From assembly GCA_003140935.1 (NCBI GenBank), contig PLLJ01000041.1:12212-76211 (forward strand): a stretch of 64,000 bases of DNA. The letters run 5' to 3'. Source of the DNA: Candidatus Omnitrophota bacterium (GTDB lineage Bacteria; Omnitrophota; Omnitrophia; Omnitrophales; Aquincolibacteriaceae). Of this stretch, positions 36,687 to 42,329 are shown piece by piece. The notes beneath the pieces are model-generated. The model ran no database searches and was not told where the DNA came from. It saw nothing but the letters and a program-made list of their open reading frames with translations. The position numbers were made by a program, and so were the translations under genes. Positions within the stretch are counted from its first letter, which is position 1; every line of letters begins with the position of its first letter.

Positions 36687-36762
<76 letters not shown>

Positions 36763-38822: not shown

Positions 38823-39131
38823 CTAAGAAGACACCGTGGTGCGCAAAAACCAATACGCCAATGCCGCGATGATCAGAACGGAGATAATGTAAAAATTATT
38901 GAAACGCCAAAAATCCCACAACCGTTGCCAGAAGTAACCGGAAGCCCTGCCTTTTTTTTTCTTGAGCAGAACGTCATACTTAAGGCCAAGAACTTCTTCT
39001 TTCCGGAAGCGGATGTACACGCCGCCGATCTTGTAGGCGTGCAGGACTTCATCCCGAATGAACTGTTCGATCACTTGTTGTTCAACCTCGAGGAAGTTCT
39101 TCACCTCGTCGAGCGTCAGCATGTTATTCAT
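38823..39131 (-). CDS. Membrane-anchored excisionase/MerR-type HTH protein (102 aa)
   Basis: The N-terminal LTLDEVKNFLEVEQQVIEQFIRDEVLHAYKIGGVYIRFRKEEV matches the excisionase-family HTH pattern (LT..E.A..L.VS...Y.L...G.LPA.KIGG.WR....DL). A C-terminal TM helix FYIISVLIIAALAYWFL follows. Confidence 0.6.
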   Translation of the reverse strand: MNNMLTLDEVKNFLEVEQQVIEQFIRDEVLHAYKIGGVYIRFRKEEVLGLKYDVLLKKKKGRASGYFWQRLWDFWRFNNFYIISVLIIAALAYWFLRTTVSS

Positions 39132-39207
39132 AGTAATATCAGCCGCCTAACTGAAAAGCATGCGCATGGTTTGCCACAGAAAAAACACCCCAAGCAAAAC
39201 AGGGGTT

Positions 39208-39741
39208 TTAGACCGAGGCCTTCTCTCGTTGGATCCACTGATCCACTTCGGCCTTGGTAAAGATCCAGTGACCATTGTCAAAACGCGCCGGGATCTTCTT
39301 AGAATGAGCCCACTCTTCAATAATGCGAGCCTCAACCTCCAAATACTGCGCTACATCCTTCAGCGTCAAAAAAACATCCGATCCGTCTGAAGTGCTCACA
39401 CCTTGCATAGTCACGAGGCCTTGAAGGATCGCACCATCTCCGATGCTCAAACGTGGGGTGGTAAGATTCCCTTTGAGAGTTGCCGTTCCAAGAATGGAAA
39501 GACTTTGAGTTGCGATAACATCCCCGGAAACTTTCCCGGCAATAACGATATTGTCGCCGTGGATATTCGCGCTGACCTTGGCATTCTCACCGATCGTAAG
39601 ATTGCCGCGCGTGTCAAGCTTGCCCTCAAAACTTCCATTGATGCGCAAATTCACGGGATCCTTGAAGGAAATCGTGCCCTGCATGCTCGCGTCAACATCG
39701 AGGATCTTCTCCTGGATATCTTCCTTCTTTTTATTGGCCAT
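39208..39741 (-). CDS. Bactofilin-domain protein fused to a C-terminal excisionase-type HTH domain
   Basis: Residues 20-125 form a bactofilin beta-helix repeat pattern (ISFKDPVNLRINGSFEGKLDTRGNLTIGENAKVSANIHGDNIVIAGKVSGDVIATQSLSILGTATLKGNLTTPRLSIGDGAILQGLV). The C-terminal FLTLKDVAQYLEVEARIIEEWAHSKKIPARFDNGHWIFTKAEVDQWI is paralogous to the HTH of 38823..39131. Confidence 0.75.
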   Translation of the reverse strand: MANKKKEDIQEKILDVDASMQGTISFKDPVNLRINGSFEGKLDTRGNLTIGENAKVSANIHGDNIVIAGKVSGDVIATQSLSILGTATLKGNLTTPRLSIGDGAILQGLVTMQGVSTSDGSDVFLTLKDVAQYLEVEARIIEEWAHSKKIPARFDNGHWIFTKAEVDQWIQREKASV

Positions 39742-39868
39742 GGTCGTTCTCCTTTGGAGACATTGTGGGGTATAGAAGCTAACTTATTATTATCGTTTTA
39801 GGGGGCATTGTCAATGGAAGTGACCGCCATCGTCACCCAATGCAGGGAGATTGCCCGGAAGGACCGTT

Positions 39869-40405
39869 TTAGACCCGATGCAAAGCCAAAGACAATTCGG
39901 CGAGACCCGCGATTTCCTGTGACGTCAGGCGAGTGCTCTGCAAAAAACTCCTCGGGGAAATATGAACGCAGGAGGGCTTCTCTCCATCTTGGGTCAGGCT
40001 GAGGACAGGCATGGAAGAAGGGATCCACTTACATATTCGGGCACCAACTTTTTCCCGATCCGTACCCAAAAGCCCGGCATACTCAAAAAAACTCAGGCGA
40101 TCACTGAAGCCGTTCATCCTGATGATCTGTTGCCGGTCCAATTCTGGATAGAAAAGATAGAGCGTTGCATCGTTAGGCATCAGCACCCAAAGCTTTTTGA
40201 TTTCCTGCTGCAATTCATCCACGGAATAATCCCGCATTGACCGGTAAAAAATACGTGCCCAGACCTGTGCATCCTCGCTCTTAAAAAGAAACGGGGTGCC
40301 ATTCGTATCCTCGAGGATCACTTTGTCTGCGTGAAGTTCCTGGATCGACAGGCGGATCAACTGAAAAATCTCCTGACGGGTCACGCGCTCTTGGATCGCG
40401 ATCAT
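39869..40405 (-). CDS. Hypothetical protein (178 aa), third gene of the ParA-like operon
   Basis: The ATG at 40405 forms an ATGA overlap with the stop of the upstream gene. No recognisable domain. The track's start at 40429 would add 8 aa. Confidence 0.5.
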   Translation of the reverse strand: MIAIQERVTRQEIFQLIRLSIQELHADKVILEDTNGTPFLFKSEDAQVWARIFYRSMRDYSVDELQQEIKKLWVLMPNDATLYLFYPELDRQQIIRMNGFSDRLSFFEYAGLLGTDREKVGARICKWIPSSMPVLSLTQDGEKPSCVHISPRSFLQSTRLTSQEIAGLAELSLALHRV

Positions 40406-41217
40406 CGCGACACCTCGGCCAGAGCACACACCGGCGTTTTTCTTTCCAAGGATTCAATCCAATCAGCCAACAGGTACTTCTGAAGACTGGGTTTTGCGTT
40501 CCAATGCTGATATTTCAACGGTTCTGTATGAAGGGCCGCAGAAAAATGTCGCGCAGGATCCGCAAGATCTATCCACCCTAACCATCCAAGATCAACATCA
40601 AGATGTGTGGACACAAAACTTGAAAACCGATCGAAGACCACCGCCCCCTTGGCCTCCTCTGCTCTTCCGGACAAGGTGACGTAAAATTCAAGTTGCGGGT
40701 TCAACGCCAGCCCAACCTTCATCATTTTGTAACCTTCCGTTAGAGATTCGGCCGTGGGTTTTAACAAAAGAACCCATTTGTCCAGCAGAGAGATCACCTT
40801 CTCAAAGTGAAGCAGGTGACGATACTCGAAATCCAGGAAAATATCCCGGCTCTGGAGCACTCCTTCAGACCGAGGCAAAGAAGGCCCGCTGACAAGATCA
40901 TGAAGCTCATCCCAATAAAGGCAATACCGCACGAGATGGTCCCCGAACGATTCTGACAGGCCGTCCCCGAAGCCCGAAGGAGCCTTGACCTTGCGCGATA
41001 GAACGCTGAGAAGAGAACAGGCTCGCTCCGGAGATGCGACCTGCGAAGCAAAGAACGTATTCAAGAGAAGCGAATCACCATCACAATCGGGGCTCGAAAC
41101 ACCCAGCGCTTGAACTTCGGGAGAACGACGGACCGGGACGTCTTCGGGAACTGTACCGAAGAGAGGCGAAATGTCTTTTAATCCGCGAACGAGCTTTTTG
41201 GAATCATCCATGATCAA
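40402..41217 (-). CDS. Hypothetical protein (271 aa), second gene of the ParA-like operon and a candidate partner/adaptor of the ATPase
   Basis: The ORF overlaps the ParA-like stop by 4 nt, suggesting translational coupling. No recognisable domain. Soluble, acidic and predicted alpha/beta. Confidence 0.55.
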   Translation of the reverse strand: MIMDDSKKLVRGLKDISPLFGTVPEDVPVRRSPEVQALGVSSPDCDGDSLLLNTFFASQVASPERACSLLSVLSRKVKAPSGFGDGLSESFGDHLVRYCLYWDELHDLVSGPSLPRSEGVLQSRDIFLDFEYRHLLHFEKVISLLDKWVLLLKPTAESLTEGYKMMKVGLALNPQLEFYVTLSGRAEEAKGAVVFDRFSSFVSTHLDVDLGWLGWIDLADPARHFSAALHTEPLKYQHWNAKPSLQKYLLADWIESLERKTPVCALAEVSR

Positions 41218-42329
41218 GCAAACTCCATGTAAGAGTCAATGCCTCCATAGGCATTTTCTTTCTGCGCGGGCTGATGGGGATCCACCTGCCACTCTCCATC
41301 CACAATGAACTTGTAGCGAAACGTCTTGAGCTCCACCGAAATGACCTTCTGCCAAAGTCCGTCTTGATCACGGCGAATGAGCGGCTCAGGAACCCAATGA
41401 TTGAAATCCCCGGCGATTTCTACCGAGGACGCTGTCTTACTCAAAAACTGAAAAAGGATCCCATCCGAGATCATACGCGGCCCGAAATGATTTTTAAAAA
41501 TCTGCTCCCATCCGAGTTCTTTTTCCGGAAGCCTCCGGTTCCAATCCCGCTCCAAATATTCGACTGCAAGATTCAAATAATCCTGAAAGGCCGTCGATTG
41601 GGCCGCATACTGAACAATACTCTGTCCCGCAGCCGCCGCTTCCTTCAGACTCACATGTTCATGAATAATCGTCGTGAAAAGCCGGTCCTGAAAATGAGCT
41701 TTCACTTCGTCATAGATCTCATGAGAAAAATTAACCTGGGAATTGAAGAGCGTCAAAAGCGCATGAACGGCAAGAGGCGTTTCCCGGCTCCGATTCACAA
41801 CCTGGAAAGTTTCAGAAATTTTCGCAAGTCCGTGAAGTGAAAAAAATGACGGCTCAACCGGAACCACGACTTCATCAGCCGCATGGAGAGCATTCCAAGT
41901 GAGAATCCCGAGATTCGGGGGGCAATCAAGAACTACAAAGTCATAATGGCGCTGATCTTCATCGATCCGGGTCAGAAGATCCCGAAGTCTGAGATGGTAA
42001 TTAGGCACAAACCCGAATTCTTCCTCAAGGGCATTCAGGCTGGCATTGCAGGGAATGAGATCATAATCCGGCTTCAGGTTCCGGATAACTTGAGAGAAAG
42101 GAGGTGCTATCTGCTGAAGCGGACTTAAAAGATCATAAAGAGTCGACATCCCCTTCTGCGTCTTGACCCCCAACCCGATCGTGGAATGCCCCTGCGGGTC
42201 CAAGTCGATCACGAGAACTTTCTTTTGAAGAAAATTCAGACATGCCGAAAAATTGATGCTGGTTGTGGTCTTTCCACACCCACCTTTTTGATTGGCAATG
42301 GCAATAATTCTCAAAAAGTCGGCCTCCAT
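41214..42329 (-). CDS. ParA/MinD-family P-loop ATPase fused to a C-terminal AMPK-beta-type glycogen-binding domain (CBM48)
   Basis: Deviant Walker A IAIANQKGGCGKTT near the N-terminus. The ParA fold spans about 260 aa. The C-terminal approximately 90 aa, AGDFNHWVPEPLIRRDQDGLWQKVISVELKTFRYKFIVDGEWQVDPHQPAQKENAYGGIDSYMEF, is colinear with the human AMPK beta1 GBD (GSFNNW...HQYKFFVDGQWTHDPSEP...GTVNNII). Confidence 0.85.
   Translation of the reverse strand: MEADFLRIIAIANQKGGCGKTTTSINFSACLNFLQKKVLVIDLDPQGHSTIGLGVKTQKGMSTLYDLLSPLQQIAPPFSQVIRNLKPDYDLIPCNASLNALEEEFGFVPNYHLRLRDLLTRIDEDQRHYDFVVLDCPPNLGILTWNALHAADEVVVPVEPSFFSLHGLAKISETFQVVNRSRETPLAVHALLTLFNSQVNFSHEIYDEVKAHFQDRLFTTIIHEHVSLKEAAAAGQSIVQYAAQSTAFQDYLNLAVEYLERDWNRRLPEKELGWEQIFKNHFGPRMISDGILFQFLSKTASSVEIAGDFNHWVPEPLIRRDQDGLWQKVISVELKTFRYKFIVDGEWQVDPHQPAQKENAYGGIDSYMEFA

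Follow-up and report, generated by a model that had tools for sequence, protein, structure and literature searches.

A ParA-type ATPase fused to a CBM48 module and encoded with a degenerate MinD-fold partner: a candidate organiser of glycogen granules in Omnitrophota and other bacteria

Background

What would a ParA-type ATPase place inside a bacterial cell if it carried a glycogen-binding module of its own? The question is raised by a locus of Candidatus Omnitrophota bacterium (assembly GCA_003140935.1, contig PLLJ01000041.1, positions 12,212 to 76,211 of the forward strand; these 64,000 nucleotides are called the window here, and all coordinates without a locus label refer to it), in which a gene for a ParA-type ATPase fused to a CBM48 module heads a group of five open reading frames (ORFs). 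All five lie on the minus strand within 38823..42329, at the positions given by an original prediction that had been made from the sequence without database searches. The first three (genes 1 to 3, or the trio) are the subject of this work. From the comparative analysis presented below, the trio may be a ParA/MinD-type module that tethers or distributes cytoplasmic alpha-glucan (glycogen) granules, with a dead MinD-fold protein as regulator, a proposal whose probability we put just short of even.

ParA/MinD ATPases are a general means by which bacteria place things in the cell without motors, and the cargos known for them include chromosomes, plasmids, carboxysomes, chemoreceptor arrays, flagella and the divisome. 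Glycogen, the commonest bacterial carbon store, is to our knowledge not an established cargo of these ATPases. If the proposal is true, glycogen would be a new class of actively positioned ParA cargo, and the mechanism would be a variant in which the cargo is held by the ATPase instead of by an adaptor. In open-access papers and in bioRxiv, nothing was found on a fusion of ParA with CBM48 or on glycogen positioned by a ParA.

Results and discussion

The ParA-CBM48 fusion

The product of gene 1 contains, as had been predicted, a complete ParA-type ATPase, which is matched by the Pfam families AAA_31 (E = 3.2e-48; 164.5 bits, cut-off 27) and CbiA (E = 1.8e-16; 60.6 bits, cut-off 25.4). The ATPase domain is encoded at 41544..42314 (minus strand) and shows the motifs Walker A NQKGGCGKTT, Walker A' DLDPQG and Walker B VVLDCPP, with residues K15, G16, G17, K20, T21, D42, D44 and D135 invariant both in the Omnitrophota and in the cross-phylum alignments. 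The solved structures closest to this half of the protein are 8ray (5e-49), T. thermophilus Soj 1wcv (4e-40) and H. pylori Soj 6iub (5e-34), and these comparisons class it as Soj-type, nearest to chromosomal ParA/Soj. The start codon had been placed at ATG 42329 (371 residues), but TTG 42314 (366 residues) is the likelier start, because the homologues are 366 residues long and open with MR(I/V)IAI, and because a GGAGG lies 8 nt upstream of this TTG. Gene 1 is therefore taken to span 41214..42314 (minus strand), with matches to AAA_31, AMPK1_CBM and CBM_48.

The C-terminal module, encoded at 41217..41486 (minus strand), is of the CBM48/AMPK-beta glycogen-binding type according to Pfam (AMPK1_CBM, E = 3.3e-10, 40.4 bits, cut-off 26.8; CBM_48, E = 1.3e-6, 29.1 bits, cut-off 22.4) and to its structural relatives, the best of which for the C-terminal 105 residues are the glycogen-binding domains of AMPK beta1 and beta2 (1z0m and 4yef; E about 3e-6 to 4e-6). 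Both the presence of this module and its residue-by-residue alignment to AMPK-beta, in which GDFNHW is set against GSFNNW and YKFIVDGEWQVDP against YKFFVDGQWTHDP, are borne out from the original prediction. W312, K340 and W347 (371-residue numbering) align with W100, K126 and W133 of AMPK beta1, the residues that stack against or hydrogen-bond the sugar in the cyclodextrin complex (1Z0M/1Z0N). None of the three varies among 25 Omnitrophota sequences, and in 20 sequences from several phyla both tryptophans of the triad are invariant and the lysine is at least 90% conserved. The CBM48 of the family keeps the AMPK-beta sugar-contact residues and is predicted to bind glycogen.

A conserved linker joins the ATPase to the CBM48, and both linker and CBM48 are under strong purifying selection. 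Since hundreds of independent contigs show this same architecture from end to end, the fusion is neither a chance event nor an assembly artefact. In the window protein the equivalent of Soj Arg189, the non-specific DNA-binding arginine of B. subtilis Soj, is a Gln (LFNSQV, about 41715..41732, versus MFDSRA of the 8ray ParA). This position is Gln or Glu in the Omnitrophota subclade of the window, and Arg in 35 of the 41 other family members in which it could be parsed. In databases, genes of the trio type are labelled 'AAA family ATPase', 'chromosome partitioning protein' or 'hypothetical protein'.

A coupled unit of three genes

Gene 2 (40402..41217, minus strand) encodes a protein of 269 residues when read from ATG 41211, the start used by gene callers and in homologues, or of 271 residues from TTG 41217, and gene 3 (39869..40405, minus strand) encodes one of 178 residues from ATG 40405, a length shared by its homologues. 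Overlaps of 4 nt had been described along the whole trio; that between genes 2 and 3 (ATGA) stands, whereas that between genes 1 and 2 (TTGA) exists only if gene 2 starts at TTG 41217, for from ATG 41211 it begins 2 nt past the ParA stop, with no overlap. The gene order is conserved in relatives. Omnitrophota contigs in which the ParA-CBM48 protein is 81, 76, 70 or 58% identical to that of the window carry the trio with unchanged gene sizes and overlaps, and its conservation within Omnitrophota extends down to 56% identity. Genes 1 to 3 constitute a conserved, translationally coupled and co-transcribed unit.

The synteny upstream of the trio (obg-proB-proA-nadD-CNNM-CNNM) is also kept in Omnitrophota relatives. 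On the 3' side of the trio these relatives have mraZ-rsmH-ftsI behind a CT398-like zinc-ribbon gene, or else an unrelated Dus gene; none of them has a bactofilin gene there. In loci L001, L002, L086 and L087 (58-81% identity; for example L087:8508-13101) the trio is followed directly by the CT398-like coiled-coil/zinc-ribbon gene and the division cluster mraZ-STAS-rsmH-ftsL-ftsI. The corresponding junction of the window holds instead the bactofilin-HTH gene treated below, acpS and ydjC.

The partner proteins of the ATPase

Both downstream products had been regarded as domain-less, a description that is wrong for the product of gene 2. The product of gene 2 has no match in Pfam or NCBIfam, but a profile built from 24 members of its family matches FlhG in the PDB (E = 0.0026), the nearest folds being FlhG and FleN, and it is a degenerate, Walker-A-less protein of the FlhG/FleN/MinD fold. 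At the position of the P-loop the family reads VSSPDxxGDS, and G....GK[ST] is found in none of the 24 members; as the Walker A loop is gone, the protein was filed as a pseudo-ATPase, outside the MinD/FlhG members. A relic P-loop of the form G....GK[ST] (GKGxxGKT-like) is kept in 4 of 39 partner ORFs from other phyla and lost in the other 35, which indicates that the partner family descends from a real ATPase. The four P-loop-keeping partners (L071:8047-8946, L021:3333-4274, L026:3764-4693 and L060:1123-2085; for example GKGVRGKT) resemble an ATPase decaying into a pseudo-ATPase.

The most conserved part of the gene 2 family is not the degenerate fold but the N-terminal sequence KKLxRGLKDISPLF, in which L9, R11, G12, L13, D15, S17 and F20 are invariant. 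In the window the peptide reads KKLVRGLKDISPLF (41158..41199, minus strand); it falls in a low-confidence, helix-prone stretch of the predicted structure, and it is a candidate ParA-contacting or ATPase-stimulating peptide.

The product of gene 3 has a compact alpha/beta domain (residues 1-130), followed by a variable linker and a conserved C-terminal helix, RLTxxEIAGLxELSLAL. Its homology to the third-gene family that accompanies the fusion in other phyla was not demonstrable, in that iteration of hidden Markov models (HMMs) rendered close relatives only and the hhalign probability was below 5%; the likeness between them is limited to collinear position, size, fold class and a C-terminal L(S/T)xEE motif.

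Distribution of the fusion and of its partners

An exhaustive HMMER search over 1.8 billion representatives of clusters at 50% identity, of which the 150 best matches were examined, rendered 133 in which an N-terminal deviant Walker A and a CBM48 are combined, with 33-56% identity and lengths of 337-698 residues. There are thus at least 133 fusion-bearing clusters at 50% identity, and the phyla that hold them number at least 10. Named members among the cluster representatives belong to Myxococcota, Nitrospirota and Candidatus Glassbacteria. The second match of this search was an 1812-residue protein of Candidatus Epulopiscium viviparus (P0362, WP_305767917.1) with about 18 CBM48-like stretches and no ParA domain. 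When the GTDB species were scanned with one genome for each, 80 full-length matches were obtained, all of them in metagenome-assembled genomes (MAGs), from Myxococcota, Omnitrophota, Planctomycetota (Pirellulales, Phycisphaerae, Tepidisphaerales), Desulfobacterota, Gemmatimonadota, Rokubacteria, Acidobacteriota, Zixibacteria, Eisenbacteria, Auribacter, Margulisbacteria and Gammaproteobacteria.

The partners were surveyed across phyla by HMM iteration over all stop-to-stop ORFs of the fetched loci. A Walker-A-less MinD-like protein is encoded directly downstream of the ParA-CBM48 gene in roughly 30 loci, and the fusion is found together with a peptide-bearing partner in Myxococcota, Desulfobacterota, Gemmatimonadota, Rokubacteria, Acidobacteriota, Planctomycetota and Gammaproteobacteria. 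In Myxococcota (36% identity) the ParA-CBM48 gene is followed by two unnamed genes. The N-terminal motif reads RGL[EASK][DE][IV]SH[LIV]F(LS) across phyla, with a Myxococcota form DL[GSA][DE]VLHYF, and it is kept even where the remainder of the partner is different. The third-gene family of these phyla is present in 27 loci and carries a NucS-like IDLLAVDxxG signature; sub-threshold Pfam matches were obtained for one of its members (NucS_C, E = 2e-3) and for one partner (CbiA, E = 1.6e-3).

The arrangement of the partner domains varies among phyla. In Gemmatimonadota, Rokubacteria and Acidobacteriota there are proteins in which the N-terminal peptide is fused straight to the third-gene domain, with no MinD-like part (L025, L033, L039 and L059), and in Tepidisphaerales the MinD-like and third-gene domains form a single protein (L070 and L075). 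These fusions indicate that the components of the system are functionally tied, and that the peptide is their constant element, as would be expected of a motif that contacts the ATPase. The conserved motif and the domain fusions provide concrete interaction hypotheses. Moreover, since the system occurs in Myxococcota, Planctomycetota, Gemmatimonadota and Gammaproteobacteria, a tractable host for its study may exist.

Genomic association with alpha-glucan metabolism

A sister clade of 22 loci, from Omnitrophota and from MAGs labelled Planctomycetales, carries the ParA-CBM48 gene in a different array ('type B'), in which the order is an Alginate_exp-type porin, a GH57 alpha-glucan enzyme of ~520 residues, a 188-residue membrane/beta-sandwich protein, the ParA-CBM48 and a Lys-rich protein of 130-170 residues. 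The GH57 gene lies two genes upstream of the ParA-CBM48 gene in 14 sister-clade loci, with E values of 1e-61 to 1e-67, and GH57 is the commonest Pfam family in the batch of flanking ORFs examined there (10 of 126). Type B loci include L023, L028, L029, L031, L032, L034-L036, L040, L041, L043, L045, L053, L057, L058 and L076 (for example L034:3358-8561). Their 130-170-residue protein has a Lys-rich N-terminal tail and a small beta-barrel that opens with G.ITHYFPHV, the THYF of which resembles the type-A SHLF/LHYF core.

Glycogen synthesis has been inferred for Omnitrophota MAGs (PMC8542988). PGM_PMM genes found near the Myxococcota loci were considered as a further glycogen link and were not counted, because at ~450 residues their products might just as well be GlmM, and because these loci are close relatives of one another.

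A proposed mechanism and its weak points

If the trio does organise glycogen granules, the CBM48 would anchor the ATPase on glycogen particles, so that the ATPase itself, and not an adaptor, would bind the cargo, unlike in classical systems. ATP-bound ParA dimers would bind a surface, which would be the nucleoid in most members, where the Soj Arg189-equivalent is kept, and maybe another one in the subclade of the window. By means of these surface-bound dimers the granules would be tethered or spread. N-terminal peptides of ParB, MinE, McdB and PomX stimulate their cognate ATPases. The N-terminal peptide of the partner could similarly stimulate ATP hydrolysis, upon which the ATPase would be released and recycled, and the granules would be distributed and inherited by both daughters. 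The dead MinD-fold domain and the 178-residue protein might together form a regulator or adaptor complex. As to the general role of the family, we suggest, tentatively and at rather less than an even chance, that it is a widespread and so far unrecognised ParA-based organiser of glycogen granules with an inverted ATPase-cargo logic, a dead MinD-fold regulator and, often, a degenerate nuclease-fold protein. If so, two families without a Pfam model would be defined, namely a pseudo-MinD with an RGLxDxSHLF peptide and a NucS-like partner.

Glycogen had already been named as the possible cargo in the original prediction, and of that reading the coupled unit, the sugar-contact residues and, in the sister clade, the GH57 neighbour are in favour, whereas the bactofilin scaffold and the domain-less partner that formed part of it have had to be given up. 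Several observations weigh against the glycogen-granule proposal itself. No glycogen gene was found in the window among the 25 of its 69 matched Pfam families that were listed, nor was one seen beside the trio in the Omnitrophota neighbourhoods examined from the window's own clade (clade 1). The link to GH57 is confined to the sister clade, in which the partner is another one, the Lys-rich beta-barrel protein. The location of the trio just upstream of the mraZ/ftsI cluster in three relatives would suit a role in cell division equally well. Nucleoid binding by the window protein is uncertain, because its Soj Arg189-equivalent is a Gln. The basic RGL peptide of the partner is at most reminiscent of LG(R/K)GLxAL(L/F), the N-terminal Soj-stimulating peptide of ParB. 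A cargo-binding domain carried by the ATPase itself is, moreover, at odds with the textbook diffusion-ratchet scheme, which would place it on an adaptor.

Alternative explanations

The same features could belong to a glycogen-sensing spatial regulator, in which the CBM48 would be a sensor or landmark, as in AMPK, and the ParA and the pseudo-MinD would control another process, such as division-site placement or chromosome segregation, according to the status of the carbon store or the position of the granule. MipZ, PomZ and MinD are ATPases of division-site placement. This explanation, which we hold to be rather unlikely, would account for the presence of the trio directly upstream of the CT398-like, mraZ, rsmH and ftsI genes in clade-1 relatives, for an ATPase nearest to chromosomal Soj and for a partner whose nearest folds, FlhG and FleN, are regulators and not cargo adaptors; the third-gene family of other phyla, moreover, resembles the C-terminal nuclease fold of NucS and could bind DNA. 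However, synteny with the division and cell wall (dcw) cluster is missing in the window, in L003 and outside Omnitrophota, no division protein is conserved beside the system across phyla, and the GH57 neighbourhood suggests glucan metabolism and not division.

It is also conceivable, although improbable in our view, that the CBM48-like module does not bind glycogen but is a protein-protein domain or recognises another polymer, while the partner proteins would recognise an unrelated cargo. That no glycogen gene was seen in the clade-1 neighbourhoods or among the window families listed, and that the partners have two further domains without an assigned ligand, would be consistent with such a role, as would the replacement of AMPK L146 and N150 by Tyr and Asp, according to a manual mapping on the alignment that was extended by eye past its end. 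On the other hand, the equivalents of W100, K126 and W133 are conserved across at least 10 phyla, which a pure protein-binding role would not explain, and a GH57 gene lies nearby in 14 loci. A third possibility, a chromosome- or plasmid-partition ParA of the ordinary kind with an incidental C-terminal extension, is suggested by the closest relatives of its ATPase domain in sequence, which are chromosomal ParA/Soj, and by the label 'chromosome partitioning protein' in some sources. Such a ParA would nonetheless be expected neither to keep its linker and CBM48 under strong purifying selection nor to score 110.7 bits against an NCBIfam ParA_partition cut-off of 180. A ParB (ParBc/HTH) gene is adjacent in none of the loci examined, and the downstream genes lack a ParB domain; ordinary ParB or MinE partners, which would have told against an undescribed system, are found in neither the gene 2 nor the gene 3 product. 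The window, moreover, is chromosomal housekeeping DNA (leuS, metH, rib, nusB, proBA) and not a plasmid. We consider the partition explanation very improbable.

Comparison with known positioning systems

The trio resembles McdA/McdB in that a small, poorly conserved partner gene lies immediately downstream of a ParA-type ATPase gene and in that the cargo would be a large body in the cytoplasm and not DNA. It differs from it in that McdB binds the cargo and McdA the nucleoid, whereas here the CBM48 sits on the ATPase, and in that a dead MinD-fold protein takes the place of McdB, which is intrinsically disordered or coiled-coil. The signature lysine is missing from McdA, while the window ATPase has a classical KGGCGKT. 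With ParA/Soj-ParB/Spo0J-parS the trio shares the ATPase domain, which is closest to Soj-type ParAs (8ray and 1wcv, as given above), but the window system has no ParB fold, HTH or parS, has a CBM48 added, falls below the NCBIfam cut-off and carries Gln at the Soj Arg189-equivalent. FlhG and FleN, to which the partner is structurally nearest, have ATPase activity and a deviant Walker A, and they carry a membrane-targeting helix at the C-terminus; in the partner the P-loop is replaced by SSPDxxGDS, and no flagellar genes are found near the trio.

The module family AMPK1_CBM/CBM48, with its conserved W/K/W triad, is shared with AMPK-beta and with plant Protein Targeting to Starch (PTST), in which, as would be the case here, a non-catalytic CBM48 resides on a protein that brings something to an alpha-glucan particle; in those proteins the module is combined with a kinase scaffold or a coiled coil and not with a ParA ATPase, and the host here is bacterial. 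The PTST papers form part of the literature on AMPK1_CBM modules (for example PMC6322578).

In the BacNOP-PadC-ParA and PomXYZ systems of Myxococcus, as may be the case here, ParA-like ATPases are regulated or sequestered by partners other than ParB. In PomXYZ, an N-terminal peptide of PomX stimulates PomZ. The partners of these systems are unrelated in sequence to those of the window. A bactofilin gene is adjacent in the window, but it forms a separate transcription unit that is not conserved with the system, and no PadC-like adaptor with a ParB domain accompanies it.

The bactofilin-HTH gene and other features of the window

The bactofilin-HTH gene (39208..39741, minus strand) follows the trio after a gap of 127 bp, and its product, as had been predicted, is a bactofilin with a C-terminal HTH, both Pfam matches being above threshold (Bactofilin, E = 3.3e-23, 82.2 bits; HTH_17, E = 1.3e-10). 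The gap holds a predicted near-consensus promoter of the sigma-70 type (39814..39786, minus strand; TTGACA, 17 nt, AATAAT; 11 of 12 positions), and a terminator-like hairpin is located at 39204..39188 (minus strand). Because it has its own predicted promoter and this hairpin, the gene is regarded as a separate transcription unit. A bactofilin gene stands beside the trio only in contigs of the window's own species, which occur in public metagenomes, and a bactofilin ORF was found near the fusion in one (L070) of about 85 other loci. Given its separate transcription and its lack of conservation in relatives, the bactofilin does not belong to the ParA system and is not its scaffold, and a link of the system to magnetosomes or to the cytoskeleton by way of the bactofilin was rejected on the synteny and the transcription-unit evidence. 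A DNA-binding bactofilin with a C-terminal excisionase-type HTH_17 may deserve interest by itself.

The last gene of the group (38823..39131, minus strand) encodes a 102-residue HTH-like protein, which had been described as a paralogous HTH protein with a transmembrane anchor; a hydrophobic C-terminal segment is indeed present, but the HTH_17 match is sub-threshold (23.5 bits, cut-off 27). The DNA around the trio is chromosomal housekeeping DNA (proB, proA, nadD, two CNNM/CBS transporters, leuS, metH, rib genes, nusB and murJ), and a plasmid or phage origin of the window was set aside on this ground. Between 28000 and 36800 the G+C content is 0.55-0.60, over genes for Mrp/hydrogenase-4-like membrane subunits, and downstream it is 0.47-0.50; a tRNA-Ala(GGC) gene (36687..36762, minus strand) is located at the edge of this high-G+C stretch.

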